From Candidatus Latescibacterota bacterium (lineage in GTDB: Bacteria > Latescibacterota > Latescibacteria > Latescibacterales > Latescibacteraceae), in assembly GCA_042572165.1 (NCBI GenBank), contig JBHPFF010000002.1, forward strand, positions 1-60,224: 60,224 nt of DNA. Reading direction: 5' to 3'. The stretch's first letter is position 1, and each line of letters begins with the position of its first letter. The translations under genes were made by a program, and so were the position numbers. Under the pieces are notes generated by a model. That model was given only the letters and a program-made list of their open reading frames with translations. It had not been told where the DNA came from and did not search any database. Shown piece after piece: positions 878 through 30,487 of the stretch.

Positions 878-1768
878 ATGAAAATGCAGACTCTCATGAT
901 GCTATTATTGCTTTGTATTTTTCTTATGGTGCCACCTTTCACACAAGCACAGAATCCAGCGTTATACAGCCAGCTCGATCCGAGACCGTACGATCCTTCG
1001 GTCGATGCGAATATCAACCTGTATATAGGAAACTGGCGAGAATCAGTTCCTCGAGTAACTCACGGCACACTGATCGAGCGCGACATCCTTACACAGGGTG
1101 ATCCGCAAAATCCAACCGCGCGCGGAACAGTCCTTTCATTCGTCAACCGCTTCACATATGCAACTCTAAGTAGTCATGGAGTAACCACCCCGACTACACT
1201 TGACGGAGAACAGGAAATATTCTACGTCATTTCCGGAACAGGTTTAATCTATACCGGGGAGAAGATCACTGAACTCTCGGGAGGAATCGCTATCCTCATA
1301 CCCCCGGGAATAGAGTTCAGTATTTCGAATACAGCCTCAGAGTCCTTGACAATGTTCGTTATATCGGAGCCCTGTACACCAGGTTTTCGTCCGAATTCCG
1401 AGATTTTGGTCGCGAACGAACACACTACCCCATATAAACAACCTATGTCACACTGGGTCAGCCTCTCAAAAATCCTCTTCAGTACTCAATCGGGATTGGC
1501 AGTACTGGAAAATGTAGTTATTGTTGAGCTCCATCCCATGACATTCTTTCATCCTCATAGCCATCCGGAAGGATGCGAAGAAGTCTGGACAGCAATGACT
1601 GACAATTGCTATTTCCTCCTTGGTAAAGAGATAAGGTACCAGCCGTCTGGTACGGCATATATGATTCCACCAAATGGAAAAACACCCCATGCAAATTTCA
1701 ATGTTTCAGATGTTACCTGTAAGTTGTTTTATTTTGCTCGATATAGTGACCACAAGCTGCGGCCATAG
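878..1768 (+). CDS. Secreted bicupin, single module. The N-terminal barrel lacks metal ligands; the C-terminal barrel has a canonical cupin metal site.
   Basis: GGAG lies 8 nt upstream of the ATG. Sec-type leader MKMQTLMMLLLLCIFLMVPPFTQAQ. Cupin motif 1 is HPHSHPEGCEEVW (nt 1550-1588) and motif 2-like is GTAYMIPPNGKTPHANFN. It starts 17 nt after the upstream CDS. Confidence 0.75.
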   Translation: MKMQTLMMLLLLCIFLMVPPFTQAQNPALYSQLDPRPYDPSVDANINLYIGNWRESVPRVTHGTLIERDILTQGDPQNPTARGTVLSFVNRFTYATLSSHGVTTPTTLDGEQEIFYVISGTGLIYTGEKITELSGGIAILIPPGIEFSISNTASESLTMFVISEPCTPGFRPNSEILVANEHTTPYKQPMSHWVSLSKILFSTQSGLAVLENVVIVELHPMTFFHPHSHPEGCEEVWTAMTDNCYFLLGKEIRYQPSGTAYMIPPNGKTPHANFNVSDVTCKLFYFARYSDHKLRP

Positions 1769-1925
1769 TATAAACCGCTAAGCTTTTATTCGATATTCCG
1801 AAGGGATAAGGCAAATCGGCGATAATATGTCAGTAGATAGGAGTTCCATCATCTCTTGATGATATATATAACCTAACTAAATACAATTAATAAACCAACT
1901 TTTCGGAAAACTGGAGAGATGACCC

Positions 1926-2969
1926 ATGAATAAATCACGTCGAAACTTTATTCGCCGCATTACTGCATCCACAGCGGGAATCGTTGCAGCATCTTATGTG
2001 AAACCGGTTTCTACACAAATTTTAAAATCCAAGATCAGTGTTATACTTGAAAAAGGCTCCGATCGTCGCGAAACAGTTTACAACGCAATAAAGCCATTTA
2101 AGAAGGAAATCGAGAGAGGCATTCAGAAAAAGCGGGTATTCGTAAAACCCAATAACGTAATGGACAGTCACCCGCTTTGTGCAACGAATCCCGATACATT
2201 ACGTGCTGTACTTGACCTCCTAACAGAAATAACCGATCAGCAGATTGTTATTGCCGAATCCACAGCCTCACCCTTGGGAACAATGTACACTTTCGAGGAA
2301 TATGGGTATTTCCCGCTAGAAAAAGAGTACAATATAAAACTTTACGACCTCAATACCAGCACGTCCACAACGCGCTGGATTCATGATCAAAAACTCATAC
2401 CTGTGGGTATCGAGATTATTGACGAATTCCTTGCCCCGGACATCTACTGGATTTCCGTTGCCATTACCAAGACGCATGACAGTGCTATCGGTACGCTGGG
2501 ATTCAAAAACATGCTTATGGCGAGTCCGTTAAATGTGCACAAGTCGGACAAGCGTTTTGTCAGAAACCAGATCGAAAAAAGCAAAATGCACTGGGGAGGA
2601 TCTTTGGGTTTTAACTGGAACATGTTCCAACTGGCGCGTAATGTACGCCCGGATTTTGTTATTATCGACGGTCATGAGGGTATGGAAGGAAATGGCCCGG
2701 TCCGTGGCACCAAGGTTGAGCATGGTATAGCGCTTGCCGGCCCTGATGTGGTAGCGGTTGATCGTACTGCACTCGAACTTATGGGTATTGCGTACGAGGA
2801 TGTGGGATACCTCCAATGGTGTGCCAATGCCGGGTTCGGACAGGGGAACCGTGATCTCATTGAGGTTATTGGCGAAAAAGTGACAGACCACATTATCAAG
2901 TACAAATCTCATTCCAACATTGAAAGAGAACTTGAATGGAAACTAGGTGGAGTTAAGGCACCGGATTGA
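1926..2969 (+). CDS. Tat-signal DUF362 domain protein (divergent paralog D)
   Basis: Twin-arginine leader SRRNFIRRITASTAG. Motifs VFVKPNN, IVIAES, ITKTHDSAIGTLGFKN, IIDGHEGMEGNGPVRG and GPDVVAVDR are as I recall for DUF362. Confidence 0.7.
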   Translation: MNKSRRNFIRRITASTAGIVAASYVKPVSTQILKSKISVILEKGSDRRETVYNAIKPFKKEIERGIQKKRVFVKPNNVMDSHPLCATNPDTLRAVLDLLTEITDQQIVIAESTASPLGTMYTFEEYGYFPLEKEYNIKLYDLNTSTSTTRWIHDQKLIPVGIEIIDEFLAPDIYWISVAITKTHDSAIGTLGFKNMLMASPLNVHKSDKRFVRNQIEKSKMHWGGSLGFNWNMFQLARNVRPDFVIIDGHEGMEGNGPVRGTKVEHGIALAGPDVVAVDRTALELMGIAYEDVGYLQWCANAGFGQGNRDLIEVIGEKVTDHIIKYKSHSNIERELEWKLGGVKAPD

Positions 2970-3325
2970 AAGCCGGGAGAAAATACGCCAGAGGCGTTCA
3001 TTTAAAAGTTTTCTGTTTACATTTTTCAGTACCTGCAAACGATTTTTACTTTACCCAGAAAAGTTGATCCAGGTTATATGTTAGGATTTAATGTAAAATT
3101 CTCGGAAAGTAGCGTGGTCGATATTATATCTCATAACTATAGTAGGCTTACTAACACACAAAGTGGTATAAAGAAAGGGTGCAGGTCAAGTGTGCAAATG
3201 AAACGAGATGGCAAAGTATCCGATCTATTTACTTGATAATATGCTTTTTTATGTTGAATAGGTATAGAATTATTACGAGGAACAAATCAAAGCTGGATTA
3301 TTTTGCATGAAAGGAGGAATGTGGC

Positions 3326-5419: not shown

Positions 5420-5565
5420 AGTAAGGGATTGTGGCTTGTTCAAATTTTAGGCACAGAAGGGTGAAGGGGGTAGTGGTTAAATTTTTTCTGATAAATACTT
5501 TGATTTATATTAATTAAAATCTTCGGATAGTAAAAAACTTCCTAATTATAAAATGGAGGCTGACC

Positions 5566-6897: not shown

Positions 6898-7050
6898 AAT
6901 TTCATTTCCGGCTTGTTTTGATGTTTTGATTCATTGAGCGTTTGACAATGACGTTAATATTTTACACTTTTGGTTGTAATTTGTGTTCTTTTTTCTTATG
7001 ATGTATTCTGTTTTGATTTTTAATCTTTACTGTCGTGAAGGAAACTTTGA

Positions 7051-8427
7051 ATGCTCTTTCATAGCTGGATTTTTGTTGTATATTTTATATTTACACTGAT
7101 AATGTTAGTTGCGCTTAAGCGTACCGGATTCTGGCTTCACTGGCTCCTTTTCGCTTCATACTTTTTTTATGGCTGGCTTAATCCGCTCTTTCTCATTCTT
7201 ATTTGCTACTCGACGGTGATTACCTACCTGGTTGGTCTTAAGCTTGGTAGTGTGAATAACAAGAAGCTGTGGCTAAGTCTCTGTATTGTCAACGGTGTAT
7301 TTCTGCTCGGCTTTTTTAAATACGCCGGATTTGTAACGGAAAATCTGAATTTCATTTTCAATACACTGGGGCTTTCAGTTAGTATTCCGGAACCGGGTTT
7401 CATACTTCCGGTCGGGATATCCTTCTATACATTTATCAGCATTGGCTATGTTATTGATGTCTACACTGGGAAAATACCATCCGAGCGGAATTTTATCAGG
7501 CTGGCAGCTTTTATTAGCTTCTTCCCCTATCTTCTTGCCGGTCCTATTGAGCGGGCAAAGAATATTTTGCCACAGTTGAGTACGCCTCTAAAAATTAACC
7601 GTTGTGCAATCACAGAAGGAGCTTCGCTGTTTGTAGTGGGACTATTCAAAAAGTTAGCCCTTGCCGATTTCCTTTCGCTGTATGTCAATCAGGTGTACGG
7701 TGATCCGACCGAATATCATGGATTAACACTTCTCGTCGCCACATATGCTTTCACCTGGCAGATTTATTTCGACTTCAGCGGATATACCGACATGGCACGT
7801 GGTTGTGCACGGATACTTGGTTTCAAGCTTATGTTGAATTTCAATAATCCTTATCTCTCGGCAGGACTCGGAGAATTCTGGCAGAGGTGGCATATCAGCC
7901 TCTCCAGCTGGTTCAGGGATTATGTTTATATTCCCCTCGGAGGAAACCGTCGCGGGCGTTTCAACACTTACAGAAACATGGTGCTGACTATGCTCATCGC
8001 CGGATTGTGGCATGGAGCCGCATGGAACTTTGTTATCTGGGGCGGCTTACACGCTCTGGGTCGCTGTGTCACAAGAGAGTTAGAGAAAACCCGTTTCTAC
8101 TGTGAACGTGTTCCCAGAATTGTAAAACAACTGCTCGTTTTTCATTTTGTGTGTTTGACCTGGATTTTCTTCCGTGCTGAGACTATAGGGGATGCGATAA
8201 CAGTGTTAACCGGAATATTTTCATTTGTTCCAGAGGATCCAAGGTTTCCGGTATGTGCGATACTTTTAATACTCGGCGTCTGGTTATACCAGTTCATGTA
8301 CGAATCAAATTTCAGGAAAATACTTGAATTGTCTTTTATCAGAGTCGTGTTTGTGCTGTCAATGATTTTATATCTCATTTTCTTCAGGACATCTGGTTAT
8401 GAAGTCTTCTACTATTTCAGGTTCTAA
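7051..8427 (+). CDS. MBOAT family membrane O-acyltransferase (AlgI/PatA/DltB-like)
   Basis: Polytopic hydrophobic protein. Signature WHISLSSWFRDYVYIPLGGNRRG ... GLWHGAAWNFVIWGGLH includes the conserved MBOAT His. Confidence 0.85.
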   Translation: MLFHSWIFVVYFIFTLIMLVALKRTGFWLHWLLFASYFFYGWLNPLFLILICYSTVITYLVGLKLGSVNNKKLWLSLCIVNGVFLLGFFKYAGFVTENLNFIFNTLGLSVSIPEPGFILPVGISFYTFISIGYVIDVYTGKIPSERNFIRLAAFISFFPYLLAGPIERAKNILPQLSTPLKINRCAITEGASLFVVGLFKKLALADFLSLYVNQVYGDPTEYHGLTLLVATYAFTWQIYFDFSGYTDMARGCARILGFKLMLNFNNPYLSAGLGEFWQRWHISLSSWFRDYVYIPLGGNRRGRFNTYRNMVLTMLIAGLWHGAAWNFVIWGGLHALGRCVTRELEKTRFYCERVPRIVKQLLVFHFVCLTWIFFRAETIGDAITVLTGIFSFVPEDPRFPVCAILLILGVWLYQFMYESNFRKILELSFIRVVFVLSMILYLIFFRTSGYEVFYYFRF

Positions 8428-9511: not shown

Positions 9512-9655
9512 CTATAATTATTTATGGTTCATCCAGTTAATGCTTACCTTGACTCATGAATGAAGTGGATACCCGTTAATTGAGTGAACTACTTTTATTA
9601 CTTAAGTAAACTGAAGAAATCGTTGAGACCATCATATTGGAAGGAACAAAGAAAT

Positions 9656-13707: not shown

Positions 13708-14859
13708 TTATTTGATTTTTATAACGATATCCCGTGATCTGTCAGCGCCGTGTTCCTGCAGGGTAATGCTGTCCTCCGTGCTGATTATATCCGCAACTCC
13801 CCTGTAGTCAACTGGAATTTTTGCAAGAAATGCGGTATAGGCTTTGACTATGGTTTCTCCTGTATCGATGTACTCAAATACCGGATGGTCAAATATACTA
13901 CCCTTGGCAAGAATGTCAGCAAAAGGGCGAGGCATAGCAGTGGTGCCGAATTCGAGCCCGCGTGCAAAAGGTTTGTCTTTTACTGCATGACGCCAGATCC
14001 TGAGCCAGGGATAATCTGATAATTCCCAGATGTAGCCGATTAAAAGCTCCTTGCCGGGATTGCATGCTGTAACCCAGCCGGATGTATCATCATCCGAAAA
14101 AACAAACGAAACGACACCCGGATTTTGATTATCTTCAAGAAATCTTAAATCGACAAGTTTTCCCCTGTAAACAATTTGGGGCCAGTAAACGACCGGTTCC
14201 TCGATGTTAGGCATTGGATTACCGGCCCAAAATCCCTTTTTTGCATTTGAATCTACCATAACGGTTTCATCAAGGAATGGCGGCGCTATGGATGGGTGCT
14301 GAACTATATTATACACTCTCCCCAGTTTATTAATATTTGTAATTTCCTCACGTACAGTGAAGACGGGAGCATTTTCATAGAGATTTATCGTACGTTTCAA
14401 TTGCATTCCGGCTATAGGGAGTTCGCATGACATTCCGGCACTGATAATACCTTCCTTGAGAACCGGTTGTGAGAGAAGCTTCCAGAGAACCTTTGAGGAT
14501 TCACCGTGATTTGTCATTCCGTTGCGGGCTTCTGTCTTTGAGGAGCGTCCCAGACGGTCGAAACATATAAAATGACCCATACTTCGAGGTTTAAGATCGC
14601 CGATTTCAGGATAATTCCAGGTGAGGGGATTGAATCCCTGATCCAGAAAATGAAAGTCAACTATTGATCCACCGCCAAGATCAATGACAACCTTTGTTTT
14701 TTTCCCTTCAAGTTGAATAACACTCCTGCCCTCAATTCCTGTTTCAGACCATGAAACAGACGAGAGTGAAATCAGAAGAAAAGTAAAAACAGCAGCTATT
14801 ATTTTCATTTGTTTTCTCCAAATTACATGTTTTTTTGTGATATTTTTTATTTTATTCAA
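13708..14859 (-). CDS. Secreted hypothetical protein, possibly galactose-mutarotase-like fold; function unknown
   Basis: Long ORF with the leader MKIIAAVFTFLLISLSSVSWS. An alternative start at nt 14808 is likely. I saw no diagnostic motif, so the fold suggestion is weak. Confidence 0.55.
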   Translation of the reverse strand: MNKIKNITKKHVIWRKQMKIIAAVFTFLLISLSSVSWSETGIEGRSVIQLEGKKTKVVIDLGGGSIVDFHFLDQGFNPLTWNYPEIGDLKPRSMGHFICFDRLGRSSKTEARNGMTNHGESSKVLWKLLSQPVLKEGIISAGMSCELPIAGMQLKRTINLYENAPVFTVREEITNINKLGRVYNIVQHPSIAPPFLDETVMVDSNAKKGFWAGNPMPNIEEPVVYWPQIVYRGKLVDLRFLEDNQNPGVVSFVFSDDDTSGWVTACNPGKELLIGYIWELSDYPWLRIWRHAVKDKPFARGLEFGTTAMPRPFADILAKGSIFDHPVFEYIDTGETIVKAYTAFLAKIPVDYRGVADIISTEDSITLQEHGADRSRDIVIKIK

Positions 14860-16820: not shown

Positions 16821-17909
16821 CTATTGTCGGGCTTTTTTGGCATCTTCATATATCCAAGCACGCGTCTGGTCAATATGTTCGTACAGTTTATATTTTACGA
16901 TGTGTTTTCTGTAATCGGGACCGACAATTTTTATCTTTGACAGGTTATCTTCCCCAATTCCGGCTTCTCCGCACCAGGTCAGGTATTTTACCTCGTTGTA
17001 GTCAACACCCATTAATTCAACTCCCAGGCGGTCAGCGGCAAGCCAGTCTGTGCTGGCAAGGGCGACACCTTGGTATATCGGTGTACCGTGCCACGGTCCG
17101 TTTCCCTCTATACCCTCTACTCCATCGAGGACCGCAAGATCGGGCTGTACACTCATTGTTGCCAGCAGGAACATGTTATAGCTGAGACCCCTGTTATCGC
17201 CTGAATGCATTTTTGCCTTCTCGTTTTTATCCTTTGCTGTTGATTTATAGTGATGTACGGGTGAGCCCATAGTCATGTTCTTAAGTGATAGCGTAACTAT
17301 GACACTTGAGTGCGTTTTAAGGCGTGTTGCAGATATCATATATATATTCGGATCAAGGAAGGAAGCAGTAATGTTGATTTTCAGCGGATGACCAGTAGCG
17401 TCCAGTATCCATCTTGGAGTAAAAGGAAGATCGTTATTATCAATGAATTCAATGTTATATTCTTTTAATAAGGGGAGGTAATCAATTTTTTCGAATTCAA
17501 CTAAAATGTTGACCGGCTTGTTGGCAGTGCCCTCAGCGATAATAACTTTCCTGTCATAGACAGGCTTGAGGAAATCAAGGACTCCTCTGAGCTGGTTTAC
17601 ATCGGTGCCGCATCTCGGAAATTCCTCTAAAACCTCCCCGACGTTTGCTTTGATAACAACCTGTTTGTTACCGATGGCATTTACAATCTCTTTTTCCAAT
17701 GGTTTCAGGGCACGGTAAGTGGCATCGCGTGTATCTGTACCTGTAACAAAGGATACCCGGCTGTCTTTTGTGCCGTACCTTCCCATGGAGGATGATTTGC
17801 CCGGCTGGTAGAGAGAACCAGATAACAGACCCGAAGTGCCTGCGGTCATTTGTTTTAAGAATCTGCGGCGTCCTGTAATTTTCTTGTGTGAACTGGAATT
17901 TTTTTCCAT
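16821..17909 (-). CDS. Tat-signal DUF362 domain protein (paralog A)
   Basis: Leader GRRRFLKQMTAGTSG. Motifs VVIKANVG, VIIAEGT, ISATRLKTHSSVIVTLSLKN, LDGVEGIEGNGPWHGTP and ALASTDWLAADR. Confidence 0.7.
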   Translation of the reverse strand: MEKNSSSHKKITGRRRFLKQMTAGTSGLLSGSLYQPGKSSSMGRYGTKDSRVSFVTGTDTRDATYRALKPLEKEIVNAIGNKQVVIKANVGEVLEEFPRCGTDVNQLRGVLDFLKPVYDRKVIIAEGTANKPVNILVEFEKIDYLPLLKEYNIEFIDNNDLPFTPRWILDATGHPLKINITASFLDPNIYMISATRLKTHSSVIVTLSLKNMTMGSPVHHYKSTAKDKNEKAKMHSGDNRGLSYNMFLLATMSVQPDLAVLDGVEGIEGNGPWHGTPIYQGVALASTDWLAADRLGVELMGVDYNEVKYLTWCGEAGIGEDNLSKIKIVGPDYRKHIVKYKLYEHIDQTRAWIYEDAKKARQ

Positions 17910-17956: not shown

Positions 17957-19060
17957 CTATTTTTCAGCTTTTTCCATGTCTTCATATATCCATGCCCGCT
18001 GCTGTTCGATATTTTTAGGCAGTTTGTATTTTTTAATATGTTTTTTATAGTCCGGACCGTTAATTTTTATCTTTGACAGGTCATCTTCTCCCATACCAGC
18101 CTCGCCGCACCAGACCAGGTATTTCAACTCACTGTAATCATGCCCCATTAATTCTACTGCCAGGCGGTCTGCGGCAAGCCAGTCCGTACTCGCAAGCGCA
18201 ACACCATGTTCGATAGGTGTTCCCCTGACAGGGCCGTTGCCCTCCATGCCGACCACGCCGTCAAGAACAGCAAGATCGGGCTGTATGCCCATCGTGGCGA
18301 GGAGAAATATATTATAGCTCTGACCACGTCTTCCCCAGGCATGCATTATCTGCTTTTCGTTCCTGCCTTCAGCTTTTTTTTGTTTGTAGTGATTGATGGG
18401 TGAACCCATCGCTATATTCTTGAGAGAAAGAGTGGCGATGACACCGCCCGAATTTTTCAGGCGGGTTGCTGATATCATGTAAACATTCGGGTCGAGATAG
18501 ATATCGATCAGATTGATGGGCATGGGATGGCGATTCGGAGCCTGGATGAATTTTTTTATAGTTGGATGGTCATTGAGATCGATGAATTTAACATTGTATT
18601 CTTTTTTCAGAGGCAGATAACCGTAATTTTCGTAACCGATAAAGGTATTTATGAATCCTTGTGGTGTCGGCGCTGCGGCTGTACCTTCAGCAATTATTAC
18701 CTGTCTGTCATAAATCGGTTTGAGAAAATCGAGAATTCCGCGAAGTTGATCCGGGTCGCTTGCGTTCAACCACCACTCTTTTGCAATCTGACCCACATTG
18801 GGTTTAATGACAACCTGCCTGTCACCAATGGCTTTTTCAATCTCTTTTTCAAAAGGTTTCAGGGATTGGTAAGTAACCTCACGGTGATCGGTTCCTGTAA
18901 CAAATGAAACCCGGCTTGTTTTTCGAGATAGAATATTTGCGTGTGAAGATTCAGGTTGATAAAGACCATAAAGCGCCATTCCTGCGGCGCCGGCAGACAT
19001 TTGGTGTAAAAATCTGCGACGGTCACCTACTTCAGGATGTGAATATGTTTTATTTTCCAT
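17957..19060 (-). CDS. Tat-signal DUF362 domain protein (paralog B, in tandem with A)
   Basis: Leader DRRRFLHQMSAGAAG. It has the same motif set as paralog A and is about two-thirds identical by eye. A 47-nt spacer separates it from A. Confidence 0.7.
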   Translation of the reverse strand: MENKTYSHPEVGDRRRFLHQMSAGAAGMALYGLYQPESSHANILSRKTSRVSFVTGTDHREVTYQSLKPFEKEIEKAIGDRQVVIKPNVGQIAKEWWLNASDPDQLRGILDFLKPIYDRQVIIAEGTAAAPTPQGFINTFIGYENYGYLPLKKEYNVKFIDLNDHPTIKKFIQAPNRHPMPINLIDIYLDPNVYMISATRLKNSGGVIATLSLKNIAMGSPINHYKQKKAEGRNEKQIMHAWGRRGQSYNIFLLATMGIQPDLAVLDGVVGMEGNGPVRGTPIEHGVALASTDWLAADRLAVELMGHDYSELKYLVWCGEAGMGEDDLSKIKINGPDYKKHIKKYKLPKNIEQQRAWIYEDMEKAEK

Positions 19061-19299: not shown

Positions 19300-20433
19300 C
19301 TATTTGAAAATATCATCAGATATACGGTCAGATCTTATCTCGGGGGCACGCCAGTCCCCGGGCAGATCGGCACAGTTGACCATTAGGCCGTTTTTTTCAC
19401 AATGGGAGTAAAATCCTGTCAGGAATGTTATGGTTTTTTCAAGAATGTATTCGTGTGTCTGCGGCATTTCACCCGTCTCGATCATTCTAGCAAACTCAAG
19501 GCAGGGGGGGAGAAAGAGATTCTTATACAGTGAAAACACATCCCCGGGAACATCATCGTAATCAGCAACTCTTCCCATGTTAGTGGATACAACCAACCAC
19601 CCGAATGTATCCCTTTCACTCGTCAGATTCATTCCCGCGTAATAGTCACGATTATTCTCATGACTGCATCTCATGGTAAAGAAAGCAGATTTAAACTCCC
19701 ACCATTTATCAGCCTGTAGACTTACTGCGACTACCTTCGGCTGTAAGACAGTGTGTAATTTATAAATCCCGTGGATAGCGTGGGCGGGATATTCATTGGT
19801 CGTTTCCAGTGCCATCGCACCAGTGATAACGGCACCCTCATCGAGCTTTTTTTTCAGGTTGTAGCGGAGCCTGACAGTCTCATGCATCATCTCATCTGAA
19901 GATGGCACCATCAGAGGGGCATTGTACTTTTTTGAACGGTCGAGAACCTCTTTTGCTTCCCTGAGCGAGAGAGCAAGCGGGCGGTCTATCATCACAGGCA
20001 TGCTAGCTTCAAGATACGGTTTTGAAAGCTGGGGAAACCAGCCTGCAGAGTAAAAGTCGGAAATCATCACAGCATCAACTTTATCAACCATGTCGTAATA
20101 GTTCTTTACCGCCTTGATATCGTATTTCTTTGCAAAAGCCTCTGCGAGTTCGGGATCCGGATCCCAGATCATGGTCATGACCATACCGGTTAACCGGGGC
20201 CAGACAATTCCAAGCTCCTCTCCAAGAGGAGGATTCATGGGTATTCCCCATGCAGAATCGGCGTGGGAATACTCGCCGCAGGTGATGACACCTACCTCGA
20301 TCATCTCGACTGAAGAAGGGCTTTTTCTGGTGTATATTTTACGTTTTGCCTGAGCTTTCCGGGTTGAAGCAAGCAGTACTCCGGTAGTTGAAGCCGTTTT
20401 CAGAAATGACCGTCTCGAAGGTGTTTCTGACAT
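19300..20433 (-). CDS. Tat-signal Gfo/Idh/MocA-like oxidoreductase
   Basis: Leader SRRSFLKTASTTGVLLAS. Rossmann-like VGVITCGEYSH...DPDPELAEAFAKKYDIK...VDAVMISD...MIDRPLALSLREAKE follows the Gfo/Idh/MocA layout, with DRP in place of EKP. Confidence 0.55.
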   Translation of the reverse strand: MSETPSRRSFLKTASTTGVLLASTRKAQAKRKIYTRKSPSSVEMIEVGVITCGEYSHADSAWGIPMNPPLGEELGIVWPRLTGMVMTMIWDPDPELAEAFAKKYDIKAVKNYYDMVDKVDAVMISDFYSAGWFPQLSKPYLEASMPVMIDRPLALSLREAKEVLDRSKKYNAPLMVPSSDEMMHETVRLRYNLKKKLDEGAVITGAMALETTNEYPAHAIHGIYKLHTVLQPKVVAVSLQADKWWEFKSAFFTMRCSHENNRDYYAGMNLTSERDTFGWLVVSTNMGRVADYDDVPGDVFSLYKNLFLPPCLEFARMIETGEMPQTHEYILEKTITFLTGFYSHCEKNGLMVNCADLPGDWRAPEIRSDRISDDIFK

Positions 20434-20491: not shown

Positions 20492-21769
20492 TTATTTAAA
20501 AAACTCCATCACAGCCAGAATACCGGTATAGGCGATAAAACATGAAAAAATAAGGGAAGTAACGAGACCGATATTGAGCAATATTCCTGCTCTGTGCTCA
20601 CCCATAAGTTCTTTTTTATTGATGAGTAGAATAATACCAATAATGGCGACAGGGAGTATAAAAACATACGCTACCTGTGTTGCAATCTGGGCAGCTATGG
20701 GATTTGCGCCGAAGATAGGCACAACGAGACCGAACAGACAGGCAATGAATGCAAGACGGCGGAAAAGCGATGATTTTGTATCCATCTTGCCTGCGCGGTA
20801 ATCATCGACTAATAGAGGCGCTACCATCAGAATAGGGAATACGGAAGACAACCCGGCGCTCAGAGTTCCGGTAAAGAAAAGCGCCACCGCATATTTTCCC
20901 GCAATCGGCTCCAATGTATACATCATATCCAGAACCTTGGTAATAACCTGTCCGCGGTGAAACAATGCACCGGTGGCAGCAGCCATAATTGAGAAACTGA
21001 TAATAAACACGAGGATAGCATAAAACAGCGAATCTCTGCTTTGTTCATAAGTATTTTGTTTTGTCCAACCTTTTTCTTTCATCAGGAGCGGTCTAACGAC
21101 AAATGTCGGAGCGCCTATCGTTGTACCGACAAAAGCCGCCACCATGAGTTTACCTCCCGGTATCTTTGGAATACGTGGTATAAAACCAGCAACAATCTCT
21201 TTTGGGGATGGCATAACTACAAACATTGAAATGATAAATGAAATGCCCATAATTGTGACAAATACTATGAGTATCTTTTCAAAAAATGAATACCTGCCCA
21301 CCAGGAGCAGAGAATACATTATCAGAATAACCACAATGGCGATTCCCAGAACACTCCAGTATTTTGGAAGATCAAGGCCGGGTATGAACATGTGCACTAT
21401 CTCGTAGATTGCATTGGCGGATAATCCCAGTATACCTGTCAGGGAATTCCACTGGGCAAAGATAATACCGATCATAGTCGCAATTGCGATGGGCTTGCCG
21501 TAACGTATGTGTTTCTTGAACCCGTACAGGGTGGTCTCGCCGGTAATAACTCCAAAACGGCCGAAAGCCTCCATCAATACCCACGAGAAAAGACAGCTGA
21601 GAAAGAGCACCCAGGTAAGCTGCATGCCAAACTGCGATCCGGCTTTTGCCATTGATGTAACACTGCCTGTCCCTACCGAGTAACCAATGCCGAAAATTGC
21701 AGGGCCTATCATTAAGACCATGATCCAGATGCGTTTCACTAACGAAACGTTTGTTGAGCCTTCCTTCAT
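20492..21769 (-). CDS. NRAMP-family divalent metal cation transporter
   Basis: Polytopic membrane protein of about 11 TM helices. N-terminal GPAIFGIGYSVGTGSVTSMAKAGSQFGMQLTW resembles the Nramp consensus region. Confidence 0.6.
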   Translation of the reverse strand: MKEGSTNVSLVKRIWIMVLMIGPAIFGIGYSVGTGSVTSMAKAGSQFGMQLTWVLFLSCLFSWVLMEAFGRFGVITGETTLYGFKKHIRYGKPIAIATMIGIIFAQWNSLTGILGLSANAIYEIVHMFIPGLDLPKYWSVLGIAIVVILIMYSLLLVGRYSFFEKILIVFVTIMGISFIISMFVVMPSPKEIVAGFIPRIPKIPGGKLMVAAFVGTTIGAPTFVVRPLLMKEKGWTKQNTYEQSRDSLFYAILVFIISFSIMAAATGALFHRGQVITKVLDMMYTLEPIAGKYAVALFFTGTLSAGLSSVFPILMVAPLLVDDYRAGKMDTKSSLFRRLAFIACLFGLVVPIFGANPIAAQIATQVAYVFILPVAIIGIILLINKKELMGEHRAGILLNIGLVTSLIFSCFIAYTGILAVMEFFK

Positions 21770-21874: not shown

Positions 21875-21932
21875 AGTTTTTGTCTGTTTGAAAGCTGATA
21901 TGCCTCGTGATGAAAAATAACTGGTTTGAATA

Positions 21933-22910: not shown

Positions 22911-22934
22911 TGAAACGGTCGGTGAAAGCTGCAA

Positions 22935-24923
22935 TCATAGTTCTTCAATTACAATCAGAGGCTGCCCCTTGTCAACGCTGTCTCCTTCTTTAATCAAAAA
23001 TTTGACAATTTTACAGTCTACTGGTGCGCTGATCTCATTTATGAGTTTCATCGCTTCCACGATACATAATGTTTCACCGGCCTTAACAATATCATCTACA
23101 TTGGCATACGATGGTTTCCCCGGTGATGGTGAGGAATAATACTTACCGACAAGGGGAGAATTAATAGTGGTTGTTAATGCTCCATCGCCGGTTTGATCCA
23201 GGGAAGAATCCTGTGCCGTAGAGGAATCTTCTGAAACGGTTTCTGAGATTGGCTGATCTTCGGGTAGTGAGGGTGGTGTAGATTTCAACTGGGAAACAGC
23301 GGTACCATCGGCTTTCATCGAGAAGCTGGTGTCACCTTTACGAATGACAAGCTCGGATATACTGAGTTCGGCCATCTTTTGCATAATTTCACCGAATCCA
23401 TCATAATCAGTCTGCGACAGTAAAGATGTACCGGAAACTTCCCCGGCTTTTTTCTTTTCCAAACCGGAAAGAGCCTTCACATCAGCAGTTACCGGGGGAG
23501 CCTCCCTCTCTGCGATTTCAAGCTCCACCGGTGCAGGGGGGCGTTCATCAGGAGGCAGACTTCGCCATTTAAAATATTCGAGTGCCTGTTCGGGGAAAAG
23601 GCAGTAAGAAATGATATCCTCTTCATGGTCAATAAGGCTGGAATCAAGATTTTCAATGGCTTTAGGAAGCATGGGCTCTATATCATCTGCGGGTCTGTGC
23701 GTGATGGGTTTCTCGTCACCGAGTATCATTTTAGTAAAATCGGGACTGATTTTTGCCGGCGGTCTGCCATAAAGACCCCTGACATAATTTTTTATCTCGT
23801 TGGGAACAATTTTATAACGCTCGCCGGAGAGGACATTAAGCACAGCCTGAGTTCCAACCATCTGGCTTGTTGGTGTAACAAGCGGAGGAAAGCCCATGTC
23901 GGCCCGTACGCGGGGTATCTCCTTAAAAACCTCATCAAGTCTATCGAGGGCTTTTTGCTGTGCCAGTTGCGATCTGAGATTGGATATCATACCGCCCGGA
24001 ATCTGGTGCAGCAGGATTTCGGGATCAATTGTCGATGTTGGCCTATGTGCCGGCCTCATTTTAGGAGCAATTTCAGTGAAAAAACCTGCAATTTTCTGAA
24101 GAGCGTCAATATCAAGTTCAGTGGAATATTCAGTTTCATTGAAAATAGCTGCCATTGTTTCAACCGGCGGCTGTGAGGAGTATCCCGAAACAGGAGAAAT
24201 TGCACAGTCAATTGCACCGGCTCCAGCCCTGACACCCTCCACATAGGTTGCAATAGCCATGCCGCTCGATGAATGACAGTGTAATTGAATAGGAACATTG
24301 ACAGCATTAACCAGAGCCGTGATTAACTTTTCAGATGCGATGGGTGAGAGAATACCTGCCATATCTTTTATGCATAATGTGTCTATGCCGGCTTCAACCT
24401 GTTCTTTTGCGGCTTTCACATAGTTCTCAATAGTATGATGGGGACTTATGGTATATGAAAGTGTCCCCTGAACATGTCCGCCGTGCTTTTTAATTGACTT
24501 GATCGCATATTCGAGATTTCTCGTATCGTTTAGGGCATCAAAAACCCTGAAAATATCTATGCCGTTATAACAGGCCAGAGCAATAAAACGGTCGAGGAGA
24601 TCATCGGCATAATTTTTGTAACCTACAATATTCTGGCCTCTTAAAAGCATTTGAAGAGGTGTTTTTGTGGCTTTTGATTTTATCATCCTCAACCGTTCCC
24701 ATGGATTTTCCCTTAAAAATCTGATACACACATCAAATGTGGCGCCTCCCCACATTTCGAGGGAATAGTATCCGACTGAATCGATTACATCAACAATTTT
24801 CATAATATCATCGATTCTCAATCTTGTTGCCCAAAGAGACTGATGAGCATCACGTAACGTTGTATCGGTAATCCTCAGGGGGATACGGGATTTCTTTTTC
24901 TTTGTGGCTTTTGGCTTATTCAT
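22935..24923 (-). CDS. Biotin-dependent carboxyltransferase subunit (oxaloacetate decarboxylase alpha / pyruvate carboxylase B-like) fused to an AccB-type biotin carrier domain
   Basis: N-terminal ITDTTLRDAHQSL (HMGL-like/5S carboxyltransferase). A long S/T/P/E-rich linker follows. C-terminal SPLVGKYYSSPSPG...GETLCIVEAMKLINEI is a biotinyl-lysine motif of AccB style. Confidence 0.75.
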   Translation of the reverse strand: MNKPKATKKKKSRIPLRITDTTLRDAHQSLWATRLRIDDIMKIVDVIDSVGYYSLEMWGGATFDVCIRFLRENPWERLRMIKSKATKTPLQMLLRGQNIVGYKNYADDLLDRFIALACYNGIDIFRVFDALNDTRNLEYAIKSIKKHGGHVQGTLSYTISPHHTIENYVKAAKEQVEAGIDTLCIKDMAGILSPIASEKLITALVNAVNVPIQLHCHSSSGMAIATYVEGVRAGAGAIDCAISPVSGYSSQPPVETMAAIFNETEYSTELDIDALQKIAGFFTEIAPKMRPAHRPTSTIDPEILLHQIPGGMISNLRSQLAQQKALDRLDEVFKEIPRVRADMGFPPLVTPTSQMVGTQAVLNVLSGERYKIVPNEIKNYVRGLYGRPPAKISPDFTKMILGDEKPITHRPADDIEPMLPKAIENLDSSLIDHEEDIISYCLFPEQALEYFKWRSLPPDERPPAPVELEIAEREAPPVTADVKALSGLEKKKAGEVSGTSLLSQTDYDGFGEIMQKMAELSISELVIRKGDTSFSMKADGTAVSQLKSTPPSLPEDQPISETVSEDSSTAQDSSLDQTGDGALTTTINSPLVGKYYSSPSPGKPSYANVDDIVKAGETLCIVEAMKLINEISAPVDCKIVKFLIKEGDSVDKGQPLIVIEEL

Positions 24924-25103
24924 ATAGCTTGTTTCCTTTTCATATCCGTGAAATCGATGATTATCAATAATATTGAAATGTTAAATTTTTCAATAAAATT
25001 GGATTTATTTATCTAATATAAAAATTTTTAACGAAAATGCAAAACTGTCTTCGAAATTATTATGCTAAAATATAAAAGTAATCCTGGAATTATCATTAAT
25101 ATA

Positions 25104-25592: not shown

Positions 25593-25739
25593 TTTCTCAT
25601 CCGTGAAATAATTGAATAGATTAAAGCGTATCGAAGTATTAATGAGTTAAAGTAGTATATAAAAAATTGTAGAAGATAAGAAGAAAATATTTTAAAATTT
25701 TACTTTCCATGCAAGGTTCAGCTCAATAAACGACACTGC

Positions 25740-26270
25740 TTGACTCGGCCAGTTGGACGACCACCGAGGAAACCGATTGTGTTGTTATATGAATTTCAAT
25801 ATAAAGCGGCCAGTCGGGATCAACCGAGGCGAGTGGTCACCAAGGTGAAATGGCACCAAGGGGAGCTATTTCCAAGAGCATGACCAATATGAGCGCCAAA
25901 CCAGAAGGCGTGGTACACTTCTACAATGGCCGTGGCACAGCTGAGCAGGGGATTAAAGAAGGTAAATACGCTCTGAACTGGACACGACTCTTATGCAAGC
26001 GTTTCGTCTCTAATTAGGTGAGGCTCGGGTTATTCGTTCTGGCATACAATCTGGGGAATTTTCTTAGACGCCTGGTTCTTCCGAAGAAAATCAAACACTG
26101 GTCAATTCGCAGCCTCCTCGTGAAATTTATCAAAACCGGAGCGAAGATTGTCAGACGCAGCGGATAGATTACGTTTCAAATGGCAGAAGTTACTATAGAC
26201 AAGAGGCTGTTCGACGGGATATTGTCTCGAATCGAAGATTGCGTTGCTGTTCTGTTTAACTACACCGTTA
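25740..26270 (+). mobile_element. IS1380-family transposase remnant: C-terminal ~170 codons only, with one frameshift and two in-frame stops
   Basis: Reads LTRPVGRPPRKPIVLLYEFQYKAASRDQPRRVVTKVKWHQGELFPRA / (frameshift) MTNMSAKPEGVVHFYNGRGTAEQGIKEGKYALNWTRLLCKRFVSN*VRLGLFVLAYNLGNFLRRLVLPKKIKHWSIRSLLVKFIKTGAKIVRRSG*ITFQMAEV... This is the FYN.RGTAEQ.IKEGK...LAYNL..F.R signature I associate with IS1380. A 17-nt perfect palindrome, GTCTCTAATTTAGAGAC, lies at 26294-26310. Confidence 0.7.
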
Positions 26271-26509
26271 TGGGGTTGATTCAATGGATACGTGTCTCTA
26301 ATTTAGAGACAAATATTTTTAAAATCTATAAGGTTAAGGCGGTTTTTTGTAAAATTATATTTGTTAAAAAACATAAAATTAGTAATATTCATTTATCAAA
26401 TGGATTAGGGGAACTGTAACTACTCATGGATTTGAAATGGTTAATATTGCAAAAAGCATTCCATACTAATTATTTACTTGTTATCATACAAATTGGAGTT
26501 ATGATGAAA

Positions 26510-27338
26510 AGACGTGACTTCATCAAACAATCGAGCGCCGCAGCCTCTGGTTTTGCCATGTACGAATTATTCGAGTACGAGGATAATATAACCCAGGCTT
26601 TCCCAACCAGCAGGGGTACGGGCATAGAGGAAGCGAACTATTACATCGAGCACTGCAAGGATAAGAACACCATACCTGATGTGCGACCGGAAATCAGGGA
26701 AAATTCCCGGGCTGTTTTCCTGATTGAGACCCACGTAGACGCCCAAAAGGACGCTGAAAGATTATATCCCGAGACGGCTGACCAACTCCGAAAGGAGGGA
26801 CAGCGTATTGCCAGGCTGCTGTTTGTCAAGGGCACTAAGAAAGGAGGATCAACCTTCATCAAACCAAACTTCACCGATACTGGTGAGAGTAGATACTTCA
26901 AACTTAACAACGGAGTCCATTCTGCACCCGACTTTATTGTGGGCGTGGTCGAGAACCTCCGTGACATCGGAAATCCGAACGTGGCATGCGGTGAGACTCC
27001 CACAAACGCTGTGAGACACCGTCTTGGAGGGTGGAGCGCACGACTGGAATGGCTTTTACCGTGATTATCTGGTCAACATTGTCATCGTCGGTTGCTCACC
27101 CTACGAGGTGGATGCTGTCGGCAGTTACATTATGGGCCACGACCCACGCGAGGTCTGGTATACCCGTGTTGCAAAAGAAAAAGGCTACGGCGAGTGTGAC
27201 CCGAATAAGATTGACATTTACTGGATTCGTGAGAATGGAGACATCGTACCGGTGAAAAATCTCACTGAAATAAAACGTTGTCCGCTCGGGCTTGACTGGT
27301 TTAGGAGCGGAAATCCGAATGATTATCTTTTCTGGTGA
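26510..27338 (+). pseudogene. Tat-signal DUF362 pseudogene: +1 frame change and loss of the central ~130 codons
   Basis: Leader MMKRRDFIKQSSAAASG and the N-terminal DUF362 part (STFIKPNFT, VACGE) end at a stop at 27062-27064. The C-terminal part (NIVIVGCSPYEVDAVGSYIMGHDP...) continues in another frame from ~27024. The K(T)H / KN / EG.GP core seen in intact paralogs is absent. Confidence 0.65.
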
Positions 27339-27521
27339 AAAGAAATTTATTTACGATTAGTAAAGAGATTTAAGTGGATAAAAAGGTGTTAAAAAAACGA
27401 AAACAAGATTTAAACTGGGTGAAACAGTATGCTTAAAAAATTTGTAGTGAAATTTTCTTAAAAAATATTATTGATGGAGAAAAATTGGTAATTTAAAAAA
27501 ATTTTAATTAAGGAGGACAGC

Positions 27522-29249
27522 ATGGTTAAGCACTGGCTCTTATTTCTAACACTTTTTGCGGTTTCCTCAGCTGCAACAGCACAAAATGAGGATCGAGGGT
27601 TCCAACTCCATCCCAAGCAGTACGAGCGCGGAGTGGACGTGGATGCAAAAATGTTCATTGGCGACTGGCGCGATTCCATTTACAGGGTTAAGTTCGGTAG
27701 CCTGGTAATCAGGGATATTTTTACGCCAAATCTATCCGGCAACCCGCTCAAGCCTTCCGGCAAAGGTGAGGTGCTTGAAGTGTACAAGGAATTCGCGCAA
27801 TGTTTCCTTGCGGCCAACACCATAACCACGCCCACAACGCTTGCCGGTGAACAGGCGGTTTTCTATGTCACCGCGGGAACTGCCCAGATCTCCGCCGGAG
27901 ACAGGATCTACTGCTTGGAAATCGGCTCGGCGGCGCTTGTTCCCGCAGACCTCGAATTCACCCTGAAAAGTGGCCCCGACGAAGAACTGTCTATGCTTAT
28001 GGTCATCGAACCGATAGTTGGGGACTTTACTCCGAGAAAAGACCTGTTTGTACGAAATGGAAAAAACTCCCATTACGCAAGTTCCGGACACTGGTCAAAT
28101 ATCTCTGTACCACTCATTGGCAAAGATGATGGCCTGTGCGTAATGCATAGTTTTTTTGAAGTCCTTATCATGCCCCATAAAATTGCCCGGCCGCACGCAA
28201 GTCTCGGCTTGGGTACTGACGTCAACTGGTACTGCGTTGAAGGCGACTGGACAAATTTGGGCAAGCAGATATGGAAGTTCCGTCCGGGTATGGCCTTTAA
28301 GAATCCTTCCGATGGCCGTGTATACCACTCAAACATCAATACCTCCGAAAAACCGATCAAGTTCATACATATCCGTTCCGAGAGTCCACAAAGCCTGTAT
28401 GGCAAATACATGGGTGAGCAGAAACGGGATGAATTCTACGCTCTCCACGGCAATCCCGACGCCAATGTCGATACTGACATGTTCGTTCATTCATGGAAAC
28501 ACAAAGAACCCAGAATTGAGCATGGGGCCATACGGGTAAGCGATATATTTACCGAAAACACCTCGGAGGATCCACTCAAGCCGGAGAAGAAAGGCGCAGT
28601 CCTCGATGTGTTCAGTGAATATGCCTGGGGTGTGCTTGAGCCCGGCGAATCAACCACCAAAGAAACGCTTTGGGGTGAGCAGAAGGTTTTTTACTTCACC
28701 GGCGGCGAAGGCGAAGTTACCGGCGGAAAAGACACGGTACAGTTCAACGGATACACCGGTGTCCTCATTCCCGAGGGCCTGAGCTTTCAAATCAAAAATA
28801 CCGGCAATAAATCTTTGACAATGCTTATTTTGGGCGAAAAAACCTACAAAGGATTCAAACCCCGAAAAGACATGCTCGTTATCAAGGAGGGTGAAAAACC
28901 TCTCAGTGGAACGTACAGCCACTGGAACAATATTAATAAGCCTATCTTCGGAAAAAACAACGGCATGGCACGCTTGGTAGGCTTTGGGGCAGTTTGGCTC
29001 TCTCCAGCCACCATGGCGCAGCTGCATGCCAGCAGGGGATTGGGCACTGATGTTCTGTGGCTTGCCCTGGAAGGCGATATATGGTCGGTTCTGGGCCAGA
29101 CACTCTACCGTCTCGAACGCGGCATGGCGTTCAAGAATCCTTCTGATGGTCTGATATACCACGGCAATATCAACACGACCGAGAATATGATTAAACTGCT
29201 CTGGACTCGCTCAATTTCACCGGAGCAGGCAGAAAACCTCGGTAAGTAA
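27522..29249 (+). CDS. Secreted tandem bicupin (two fused modules, both with the substituted H-A-S...D site)
   Basis: AAGGAGG RBS and Sec leader. Module 1 has RPHASLGLGTDVNW (28194-28229). Module 2, from nt ~28440, has QLHASRGLGTDVLW (29025-29060). The module architecture matches 15061..16749. Confidence 0.75.
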   Translation: MVKHWLLFLTLFAVSSAATAQNEDRGFQLHPKQYERGVDVDAKMFIGDWRDSIYRVKFGSLVIRDIFTPNLSGNPLKPSGKGEVLEVYKEFAQCFLAANTITTPTTLAGEQAVFYVTAGTAQISAGDRIYCLEIGSAALVPADLEFTLKSGPDEELSMLMVIEPIVGDFTPRKDLFVRNGKNSHYASSGHWSNISVPLIGKDDGLCVMHSFFEVLIMPHKIARPHASLGLGTDVNWYCVEGDWTNLGKQIWKFRPGMAFKNPSDGRVYHSNINTSEKPIKFIHIRSESPQSLYGKYMGEQKRDEFYALHGNPDANVDTDMFVHSWKHKEPRIEHGAIRVSDIFTENTSEDPLKPEKKGAVLDVFSEYAWGVLEPGESTTKETLWGEQKVFYFTGGEGEVTGGKDTVQFNGYTGVLIPEGLSFQIKNTGNKSLTMLILGEKTYKGFKPRKDMLVIKEGEKPLSGTYSHWNNINKPIFGKNNGMARLVGFGAVWLSPATMAQLHASRGLGTDVLWLALEGDIWSVLGQTLYRLERGMAFKNPSDGLIYHGNINTTENMIKLLWTRSISPEQAENLGK

Positions 29250-29383
29250 GAGTCATTACAACATAAAAATTATCAAAGTCATAATTATTACGCTTATTTC
29301 TCGGTCAAACAATATATGTTTGAACAAGTCATTTAGTATTATGCAACAAATACAATCAAACGCAAGCGAGTTACACTTTCCTA

Positions 29384-30487
29384 ATGAATTTTTTAAAACG
29401 GAGTGGAACCATGTATCACGAAAATTCTAAAAATATACTGATGAAAGGACGTCGTCGTTTTTTATTTCAACTTTCGGCTATGACTGCTTATTCACTCTCT
29501 TCTTTGAGAAAATCCTATGCCGCACCTATGACTGGTTTGGAGAATAGCCGTGTTTCGTTTGTAACAAGTTCTGATACAAGAGATGCGGCTTTAAGTTCAT
29601 TGGAACCTTTTAGGAATGAAATACGGGAGGCAATCGGAAACAAACAGGTTGTCATTAAAGCGAATATCGGTGCTTTAAAAGAGGGACATTATTGCTGTGC
29701 TACAGATGTGAATCAGCTTCGCGGAATACTCGATTTTCTCAAACCGATCTATAACAGAAAAGTGATAATTGCTGAGGGATGTTCAACCGATCAACAACCT
29801 ATTGGAATATTTTATGAAAAACTGGGATATTTATCATTAATGGATGAATATAACATTCAACTTATAGATTCCAATGATCAACCGGTTACAACTAAATTCA
29901 TCAAATCCGAAAAACAACATCCTCTCGGAGTTGATATTATAAATACTTTTCTCGATCCGAATAATTACATGATTTCAGCAACCCGACTTAAATCACATGG
30001 CACTGTCATTGCTACATTGTCCTTAAAAAACGTATCGATGGGATCGGTCATTAGTCGCTATTGGCAGAAAGATAACAAGGATTGGCGTGATAAGAAAAAA
30101 ATGCATTCAGGGGGAGGCAGGGGACTGAGTTATAATATGTTTCGTTTGGCAACATACGGGGTACAACCTGATCTGGCGGTGCTTGACGGAGTTATCGGTG
30201 TCGAGGGAGAAGGACCAGTGATGGGAGATCCAATAGAACATGGTGTTGCCCTTGCCAGCACCGACTGGGTGGCAGCTGACCGTCTCGGTGTGGAATTAAT
30301 GGGTGTCGATTATAGATATATTAAGTATGTGCAGTGGTGTGCAAACGCCGGGATGGGCATTGATGATCTTAAAAAGATTGAAATAATAGGACCCGATTAC
30401 ACAAAACATATTAGAAAATACAGGATGCGTAAGAATTTTGATAGACAACGTGTGTGGGTTCAGGAAGATTTCGGCTATGGTCAATAA
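29384..30487 (+). CDS. Tat-signal DUF362 domain protein (paralog C)
   Basis: Leader GRRRFLFQLSAMTAY. Motifs VVIKANIG, VIIAEGC, ISATRLKSHGTVIATLSLKN, LDGVIGVEGEGPVMGDP and ALASTDWVAADR. The start may instead be an internal Met (nt 29411 or 29441). Confidence 0.7.
   Translation: MNFLKRSGTMYHENSKNILMKGRRRFLFQLSAMTAYSLSSLRKSYAAPMTGLENSRVSFVTSSDTRDAALSSLEPFRNEIREAIGNKQVVIKANIGALKEGHYCCATDVNQLRGILDFLKPIYNRKVIIAEGCSTDQQPIGIFYEKLGYLSLMDEYNIQLIDSNDQPVTTKFIKSEKQHPLGVDIINTFLDPNNYMISATRLKSHGTVIATLSLKNVSMGSVISRYWQKDNKDWRDKKKMHSGGGRGLSYNMFRLATYGVQPDLAVLDGVIGVEGEGPVMGDPIEHGVALASTDWVAADRLGVELMGVDYRYIKYVQWCANAGMGIDDLKKIEIIGPDYTKHIRKYRMRKNFDRQRVWVQEDFGYGQ

Follow-up and report, generated by a model that had tools for sequence, protein, structure and literature searches.

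Bicupins and twin-arginine-exported DUF362 proteins in a Latescibacterota contig: facultative neighbours in periplasmic sugar-processing clusters, with DUF362 as a candidate LarA-like nickel-pincer branch

In the lactate racemase LarA, H174 is one catalytic His, K184 the Lys tethering the nickel-pincer nucleotide (NPN) and H200 a nickel-ligand His (PMC11770544); some LarA homologues with a carbohydrate-metabolism context are known to have only one catalytic His (PMC12611868). The genes larB, larC and larE are found without larA in ~15% of genomes, implying further NPN users, and cyanobacteria are among the bacteria reported with larBCE but without LarA (PMC11796402). By inspecting the larBCE neighbourhood, the NphT-type aldo-keto reductases (AKRs) were uncovered as hydride transferases acting on sugars and dependent on the nickel-pincer mononucleotide; homologues of LarA were excluded from that search, and the text makes no mention of DUF362 (Semersky et al., 2026; PMC13524815). 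The present analysis considers DUF362 (PF04015) proteins in a stretch of 60,224 nucleotides from a Candidatus Latescibacterota bacterium (GenBank assembly GCA_042572165.1, contig JBHPFF010000002.1, positions 1 to 60,224), hereafter the window, where genes for DUF362 proteins with twin-arginine translocation (Tat) leaders repeatedly stand next to genes for Sec-exported bicupins. Both families belong to periplasmic gene clusters for sugar processing, in which they are linked loosely and do not form an obligate pair, and it is the relation of DUF362 to LarA that appears as the stronger lead.

The four intact DUF362 genes are located at 1926-2969 on the plus strand (D1, 347 aa), at 16821-17909 and 17957-19060 on the minus strand (D2a, 362 aa, and its tandem paralogue D2b, 367 aa, with 62% identity), and at 29384-30487 on the plus strand (D3, 367 aa); these and the bicupin genes below were confirmed at their coordinates by open reading frame listing and translation. 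Most of what a preliminary description had read from the letters of the window holds. Its DUF362 assignment is recovered for the four intact copies by the Pfam hidden Markov model (HMM) PF04015 (E = 1e-24 to 1e-30, 85-106 bits vs. a cut-off of 24) and its cupin assignment for all three bicupins by Cupin_2 (44-101 bits); five homologous bicupin modules are indeed found in three Sec-type proteins, from both alignment and Pfam; each bicupin gene of the window has a DUF362 neighbour; the proposed export routes agree with the N-terminal motifs, and the suggested sugar-processing context with the neighbouring genes. The only substantial NCBIfam match of the window DUF362 proteins bears a cyanobacterial name, i.e. 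the 'Npun_F2552 family' (45-53 bits vs. a cut-off of 500), and a DUF362-like protein could be a cyanobacterial NPN user.

The kinship of DUF362 with LarA is apparent at the levels of clan, fold, profile and residues. DUF362 and Lar_N are gathered in one Pfam clan, CL0471 (PMC11770544). The model of D2a (predicted local distance difference test, pLDDT, of 87.8) has a LarA-like fold, with LarA enzymes as the only significant neighbours in the Protein Data Bank (PDB entries 9eia, 5huq, 2yjg and 4nar), and all 11 best Foldseek matches belong to the LarA family (probability 1.0, E = 4e-5 to 1e-3, template modelling score of 0.35-0.44). The LarA of L. plantarum, which matches Lar_N and LarA_C, is also recognised, if weakly (E = 5e-5), by the DUF362 model of Pfam, LarA 83-246 corresponding to profile positions 18-171 and D2a 84-297 to positions 1-199, with the shorter fragments LarA 155-201 falling on positions 92-137, D2a 190-215 on 101-125 and D2a 192-272 on 103-173. 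By these profile coordinates, which are accurate to about one position, H200, K210 and H235 of D2a map on LarA H174, K184 and H200, respectively; in other words, YMISATRLKTH200...SLK210N is aligned with LLISEGFIESH174...GGRK184S, and KMH235SG with MANH200SG. An end-pinned MAFFT alignment gives the same equivalences for H200 and K210 only. Across 99 DUF362 sequences covering two subfamilies and several phyla, the equivalents of K210 and N211 are present in 99/99 and that of H200 in 96/99, only three sequences being devoid of the catalytic-His equivalent, and the equivalent of H235 is kept in 94/95 members of the short subfamily; both D1 and D3 retain the H-x9-K-N and KMH motifs.

The genomic context of NPN synthesis points in the same direction. 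Using LarB, LarC and LarE queries from annotated plasmids, the LarB alignment was scanned against species-representative genomes and 80 loci were returned with 8 kb flanks. DUF362 genes confirmed by PF04015 (E = 1e-21 to 1e-56) are present in nine of these 80 larB loci, as Tat-signal forms in 7/9 and within ~1.5 kb of a lar gene in 7/9 (p = 2e-4 vs. a uniform spread), and the DUF362 genes of all nine keep H-x9-K-N. LarA is found in four of the same 80 loci and AKR homologues in three, all distinct from the nine that bear DUF362. In five loci from Bacteroidales metagenome-assembled genomes (MAGs), a 311-aa Tat-DUF362 is divergent from larC-larE-larB at a distance of 150-300 bp and is followed by a 520-aa membrane polyferredoxin in the four loci with intact frames, the fifth (L260) being frameshifted; a WbqC-like gene comes after larB in the Bacteroidales lar loci. 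Two loci from Acidobacteriaceae MAGs each carry two tandem Tat-DUF362 genes 3-5 kb downstream, and the two remaining loci, from Lachnospiraceae, encode cytoplasmic DUF362 proteins, one of which is fused to 4Fe-4S (Fer4) domains, also matches Lar_N at E = 1e-4 and reads H-x4-GFGGALKN vs. H-x3-GFSGGRKS in LarA. The polyferredoxin beside Tat-DUF362 and larCEB (520-550 aa, with Fer4_5 and several Fer4 domains) is Pfam-confirmed in L259 and L297 and deduced from similar N-termini in L255, L265, L305 and, for Acidobacteriaceae, L276; its position suggests that electrons pass between the membrane and some of the periplasmic DUF362 enzymes. The Latescibacterota themselves carry the pathway at least in part, with larB in one locus (L282) and larB together with larC in another (L308), where both lie 11.9 kb from a DUF362 gene on the same contig, the same MAG also having a bicupin-DUF362 pair (L065). 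From the DUF362 side, one locus in a Mariniphaga MAG (L154, 395-6671) shows in order a Tat-DUF362 gene, an AKR-like gene, a gene for a membrane protein with an H-x5-DH motif and a weak DsbD_2 match, larB and larC; this AKR may be an NphT-type NPN enzyme.

Several observations weigh against NPN use by DUF362 and must be set beside this evidence. The equivalents of LarA R75 and H108 are not conserved, DUF362 reading KANVG and IIAEG in the respective regions, and the LarA_C domain is absent; at E <= 10 the window proteins still match only PF04015, and neither Lar_N (PF09861) nor LarA_C (PF21113). The hhalign comparisons of DUF362 with LarA (single-, 2- and 11-sequence LarA profiles in local, global or end-pinned mode) yielded no significant alignment and three different registers, the LarA HMM gave no significant score on DUF362 sequences, and sequence searches of the PDB returned no match for DUF362, whether a profile or one sequence was the query; hence the residue mapping is founded on the coordinates of the curated Pfam model. 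D2b reads LKNSGG where the family has LKTH, i.e. a Ser stands at the H200 equivalent, with the Lys and the second His kept. As for the linkage, the five Bacteroidales loci are syntenic and not independent, and therefore about four independent DUF362-lar associations are to be counted; larE was not seen beside the Latescibacterota larB genes, no lar gene is present in the window, and lar genes are near only one of ~170 DUF362-anchored loci, namely L154, which is also the only hit among the ~240 DUF362 or bicupin loci where lar genes were sought and in which the AKR gene is nearer to larB than DUF362 is. Such a rarity would be expected if many paralogues shared one biosynthetic cluster, but it is not evidence that they do. 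On the bicupin side, three of the five window modules are without the canonical metal site.

The missing R75, H108 and LarA_C counterparts, the non-significant hhalign results and the scarcity of lar genes seen from the DUF362 side would also be in line with DUF362 being LarA-like in fold only and devoid of NPN, in which case the invariant Lys and His would be catalytic by themselves (e.g. via a Schiff base or as acid/base) or would bind another metal or cofactor, Tat export would have another reason, such as oligomerisation or the cytoplasmic selection of a metal as in MncA, and the proximity to larBCE would reflect shared regulation or cofactor handling. To this can be added that 4Fe-4S proteins are fusion partners or companions of many DUF362 proteins but not of LarA, and that the Nramp gene standing beside DUF362 at two loci points to a simple divalent metal. 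On the other hand, the cofactor residues of LarA are matched by the His-x9-Lys spacing and the His after it, and DUF362 is seen beside larB more often in the sample than either of the other two candidate families, in loci with neither LarA nor AKR detected. All considered, likeness in fold alone is a real yet rather unlikely explanation, and the use of NPN by DUF362, where cofactor binding is predicted from conserved residues, stands near even chances with a slight lean towards doubt.

The export signals of the two families differ clearly. The bicupin N-termini have a strongly hydrophobic segment ending in TQA-Q, VTA-Q or ATA-Q, while the DUF362 leaders (SRRNFIRR in D1, GRRRFLKQ in D2a, DRRRFLHQ in D2b and GRRRFLFQ in D3) are followed by a weakly hydrophobic stretch rich in A, G, S and T, and an RR motif is found in all five window copies, the decayed one included. 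Family-wide, a hydrophobic N-terminal segment is present in 96/103 bicupins and an RR motif in 95/100 DUF362 proteins. The Tat HMM TIGR01409 scores 13.9-15.2 on the window DUF362 proteins, i.e. just below its cut-off of 16.7, and the Pfam TAT_signal model remains below cut-off in DUF362 homologues. The preliminary description had considered that DUF362 has no assigned function and that the reason for its Tat routing was unclear for want of an Fe-S centre; the absence of an Fe-S Cys cluster stands (two, two, one and four Cys, with no cluster motif), but the remainder can be refined in view of the LarA clan, the His/Lys/His pattern and the larBCE linkage.

DUF362 proteins are alpha/beta proteins homologous to LarA, and as proposed here the nickel-pincer cofactor would be tethered to them in the cytoplasm before export of the folded protein by Tat; loading in the cytoplasm would itself call for the Tat route, which would be the likely answer to the routing puzzle. 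No pool of NAD(P) exists in the periplasm. With a hydride carrier bound to the protein, the enzyme would there be able to shuttle hydride unaided on sugars set free from (sulfated) glycans, with epimerisation, isomerisation or oxidoreduction as possible reactions and H200 as the presumable single acid/base. The bicupins are Sec-exported, as judged by motif, and would fold in the periplasm, where the canonical modules, with a 3-His-1-Glu metal site in barrel 2, would probably act as metal-dependent isomerase- or lyase-type enzymes on the same or neighbouring intermediates. Family memberships, fold, leaders and the statistics of adjacency and lar linkage are established by the data, while NPN binding, the substrates and any functional hand-over between bicupin and DUF362 we infer. 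This explanation as a whole, in which two exported enzyme families share a periplasmic sugar repertoire and DUF362 is LarA-like, NPN-loaded and Tat-exported, has in our judgement an even chance of being right. In the literature searched, no exported LarA was found, nor any report linking the nickel-pincer cofactor to Tat or periplasmic export, and DUF362 is not connected with NPN, Tat or cupins in any paper, the apparent matches being DUF3623 and, for baculovirus, longer DUF36xx names (DUF3627).

Regarding the bicupins, C1 (878-1768, plus strand, 296 aa) consists of a Sec-type signal peptide and one module, while C2 (15061-16749, plus strand, 562 aa) and C3 (27522-29249, plus strand, 575 aa) combine a Sec signal with two fused modules. 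The five modules are alignable over ~270 residues with 29-48% identity to the first and 46 invariant columns. The AlphaFold model of C1 (pLDDT of 91.8) displays two beta-barrels and its best PDB matches are bicupins, namely EF2996, YlbA-type ureidoglycine aminohydrolases, oxalate decarboxylase, quercetinase and MncA (Foldseek E = 1e-16 to 1e-13; 10-16% identity). An identity as (S)-ureidoglycine aminohydrolase was considered and rejected, since the NCBIfam models (TIGR03214, NF008373 and others) give 17-40 bits vs. cut-offs of 200-445. In barrel 2, H227, H229, E234 and H271 (C1 numbering) are invariant across 36 single-module homologues. In the window, this canonical HxH...E...H site is kept only in C1 and the N-terminal module of C2; PHASD...GVD takes its place in the C-terminal module of C2, and both modules of C3 have a degenerate PHAS(L/R)GLGTD site, so that these three modules may not be catalytic. 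Barrel 1 is without His ligands and has instead the invariant Q112 and E113; the N-terminal extension contributes three more invariant residues (H62, E67 and R68) and the inter-barrel linker two (H192 and W193), a conservation pattern that suggests a second, non-metal site.

MncA and CucA of cyanobacteria are periplasmic, as the window bicupins are predicted to be. It could be conceived that the bicupins are periplasmic metal-binding or metal-buffering proteins of this kind, and not pathway enzymes, which would have expanded for metal handling near metal-dependent exported enzymes; the presence of MncA (2vqa) among the structural neighbours, the invariance of the His3Glu site in the single-module family, the massive expansion of the family and the Nramp gene in the C2/D2 locus would all fit. 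Yet MncA is no closer than the enzymatic bicupins YlbA, EF2996 and oxalate decarboxylase, the many invariant polar residues of barrel 1 and of the N-terminal extension are typical of a substrate site, and the neighbours are mainly sugar enzymes, which makes a pure metal-handling role highly improbable.

The two families differ in their taxonomic spread, the best matches of both being Latescibacterota MAGs at ~50-62% identity. The bicupin family is small (685 clusters at E <= 1e-3, or 129 at the stricter E <= 1e-30, among 1.84 billion representatives), and a scan of species-representative genomes finds it almost confined to Latescibacterota-type MAGs, the others being a few Terriglobia, one Pirellulales, two proteobacterial MAGs and one Poribacteria. 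Within those MAGs the family is greatly expanded, usually as tandem genes or two-module fusions, up to at least 22 modules in a single MAG. The short Tat-DUF362 subfamily is broader, with 345 loci including Bacteroidales, Rikenellaceae, Mariniphaga, Verrucomicrobiota, Omnitrophota and Solibacteraceae, and the long DUF362 subfamily also occurs in Acidobacteriota, Verrucomicrobiota, Calditrichia and others.

The preliminary description had taken each bicupin and its neighbouring DUF362 as a dedicated two-component periplasmic enzyme, be it a complex or an obligate two-step couple, and adjacency does recur beyond this contig. All three window bicupins are paired among 49 window genes (permutation p ~0.006), a situation in which the window is unusual. 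In the bicupin-anchored loci of other genomes, a DUF362 gene of either subfamily is the immediate neighbour of 13/80 bicupin blocks, and DUF362 accounts for 13/128 genes flanking such blocks vs. 7/499 other genes within 10 kb (odds ratio of 7.9, p = 1.3e-5), i.e. an ~8-fold enrichment in other MAGs. Besides, both the short and the long subfamilies pair with bicupins, and one pair (L087) associates a two-module bicupin with a DUF362 protein 72% identical to D2b. Against a dedicated couple, however, 84% of bicupin blocks lack an adjacent DUF362 gene, being tandem arrays with URO-D-like genes behind them or standing beside Tat-GFO/IDH/MocA or P60 genes, and over 90% of DUF362 genes have no bicupin beside them: a bicupin neighbour was found for 2/42 Latescibacterota-type short-DUF362 genes and ~3/30 Latescibacterota-type long-DUF362 loci, vs. 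0/49 short-DUF362 genes and 0/48 long-DUF362 loci from other phyla, that is in none of ~97 DUF362 genes or loci of Bacteroidota, Verrucomicrobiota, Acidobacteriota and others; DUF362 is also widespread in phyla devoid of the bicupin. Among the nearest homologues of the three window bicupins, some have DUF362 beside them and others do not; the co-phylogeny of paired bicupins and DUF362 revealed no pair that was consistently orthologous, and the different export routes imply no co-folding before export. Orientation is not conserved either. C1 and D1 run in the same direction 157 bp apart, as do C3 and D3 at 134 bp, but C2 is convergent with D2a/D2b and is therefore not co-transcribed with them; D2a and D2b are instead in line, on the minus strand, with a Tat-signal GFO/IDH/MocA oxidoreductase gene (19300-20433) and an Nramp divalent-metal transporter gene (20492-21769), the latter being the first of the run Nramp-GFO-D2b-D2a. 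Promoter and terminator scans around the three loci gave counts at chance level, uninformative on operon structure. A dedicated two-component enzyme is thus not borne out and appears quite unlikely; the pairing is real but facultative and lineage-specific, and the low pairing fractions from both anchor sides lead to the view of loosely linked families given above, rather than of a fixed two-subunit machine.

The company kept by each family is mainly that of sugar enzymes. The commonest bicupin neighbours are URO-D-like genes (17); also frequent are genes for an NlpC/P60-SH3 protein (8), xylose-isomerase-like TIM barrels, sulfatases and Tat-GFO/IDH/MocA proteins. Where two to four bicupin genes stand in tandem, one or two URO-D-like (PF01208) genes typically come next (L002, L006, L008, L012, L024, L027, L062 and others). 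Around DUF362 are found Tat-signal xylose-isomerase-like TIM barrels and sulfatases (L004, L005), Tat-GFO/IDH/MocA, SMP-30/gluconolactonase (SGL), UxuA-like and Tat-DegT proteins, and one DUF362 gene belongs to a Mariniphaga polysaccharide-utilisation locus with SusC/D, three sulfatases, GH78, a 3-keto-disaccharide hydrolase and a Tat-GFO/IDH/MocA protein. The DUF362 neighbourhood is the periplasmic sugar oxidation/isomerisation toolkit.

The window also holds a decayed DUF362 copy on the plus strand (26504-27338, leader KRRDFIKQ), the existence of which had been rightly noted but which is a member of a different and longer (~480 aa) Tat-DUF362 subfamily and not a remnant of the short one. Compared with its intact homologues L033 and L038 (54-64% identical), residues 1-178 are encoded at 26504-27031 and residues ~382-483 at 27024-27335 in another frame, ~200 codons being deleted with the core motifs included; its PF04015 score is 14 bits alone vs. 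62 bits for L038. Directly upstream lies a decayed insertion sequence transposase (25740-26167, plus strand), in which positions 274-405 of the DDE_Tnp_1_4 profile are spread over three frames, and a similar 104-aa DDE_Tnp_1_4 fragment adjoins a bicupin-GFO pair on another contig. Among the other neighbours, a FAD_oxidored (PF12831) gene at 130-861, cut off by the start of the window, precedes C1-D1 and has a homologue adjoining DUF362 in a Bacteroidales locus (L120); a gene for a 383-aa exported protein without Pfam match (13708-14859, minus strand) is divergent from C2 and has a homologue directly upstream of DUF362 in L097; and L106 likewise has Nramp immediately upstream of DUF362, which hints at a divalent-metal requirement. 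Further genes of the window encode an MBOAT acyltransferase (7051-8427), an oxaloacetate-decarboxylase-alpha-like biotin protein (22935-24923), a CBM9+DUF5916 protein (30910-33087) and a BatD/VWA/BatA-type aerotolerance-like operon (48775-53339).

Which proteins use the cofactor in the ~15% of genomes with NPN synthesis but without LarA is an open question in the NPN field. To our knowledge, the NphT-type AKRs (2026) are the only further NPN-using family reported. DUF362, a widespread family with no assigned function, now becomes a testable NPN candidate by its LarA fold, its His/Lys/His pattern and its adjacency to larCEB in three phyla, and the bicupin-DUF362 pairing itself is a weaker lead. 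More tentatively still, and somewhat short of even chances, PF04015 may form a large second LarA-like NPN branch, which may account for part of the genomes with larBCE but without larA. Its Tat members would be the first extracytoplasmic NPN enzymes, in some lineages wired to a membrane polyferredoxin and, in Latescibacterota, working alongside the expanded bicupins. If true, Tat-DUF362 proteins would place nickel-pincer chemistry in the periplasm and provide bacterial glycan breakdown with a redox step autonomous in its cofactor.

Compared with described systems, DUF362 is thus closest to the LarA superfamily, with which it shares the clan, the only significant fold match, the cross-match of the DUF362 HMM, the His/Lys/His pattern as mapped through the profile and the adjacency to larB, larC and larE; it differs in being ~100 residues shorter, in matching neither Lar_N nor LarA_C, in lacking His108 and Arg75 equivalents, in being Tat-exported, where the literature searched gave no exported LarA, and, unlike LarA, in being often partnered with or fused to 4Fe-4S proteins. 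With the NphT-type AKRs it has in common the adjacency to larBCE in loci without larA and a His/Lys motif, for the cofactor only putatively so in DUF362, and the hydride shuttling on sugars without NAD(P) performed by these enzymes is the very chemistry proposed for DUF362; unlike DUF362, they have an unrelated TIM-barrel fold, and the words 'periplasm', 'signal peptide' and 'twin-arginine' are absent from the text describing them (PMC13524815). As for the bicupins, the two-barrel fold with one HxH...E...H barrel is shared with YlbA/(S)-ureidoglycine aminohydrolase, EF2996, oxalate decarboxylase and MncA/CucA, but identity to known bicupins is only 10-16%, and the window family is set apart by its N-terminal extension LDPKPYDP...RDIFT and barrel-1 motif TTPTTL.GEQ, as well as, unlike these known proteins, by tandem fusions, large paralogue arrays and near confinement to Latescibacterota. 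Finally, the toolkit of Tat-GFO/IDH/MocA oxidoreductases and 3-keto-glycoside enzymes occupies the same neighbourhoods as DUF362 and the bicupins, neither of which is a described part of the 3-keto-glycoside pathway. Tat-exported GFO/IDH/MocA enzymes leave the cytoplasm folded, with their hydride cofactor bound, and the same logic would apply to DUF362, albeit with a different fold and a different cofactor.

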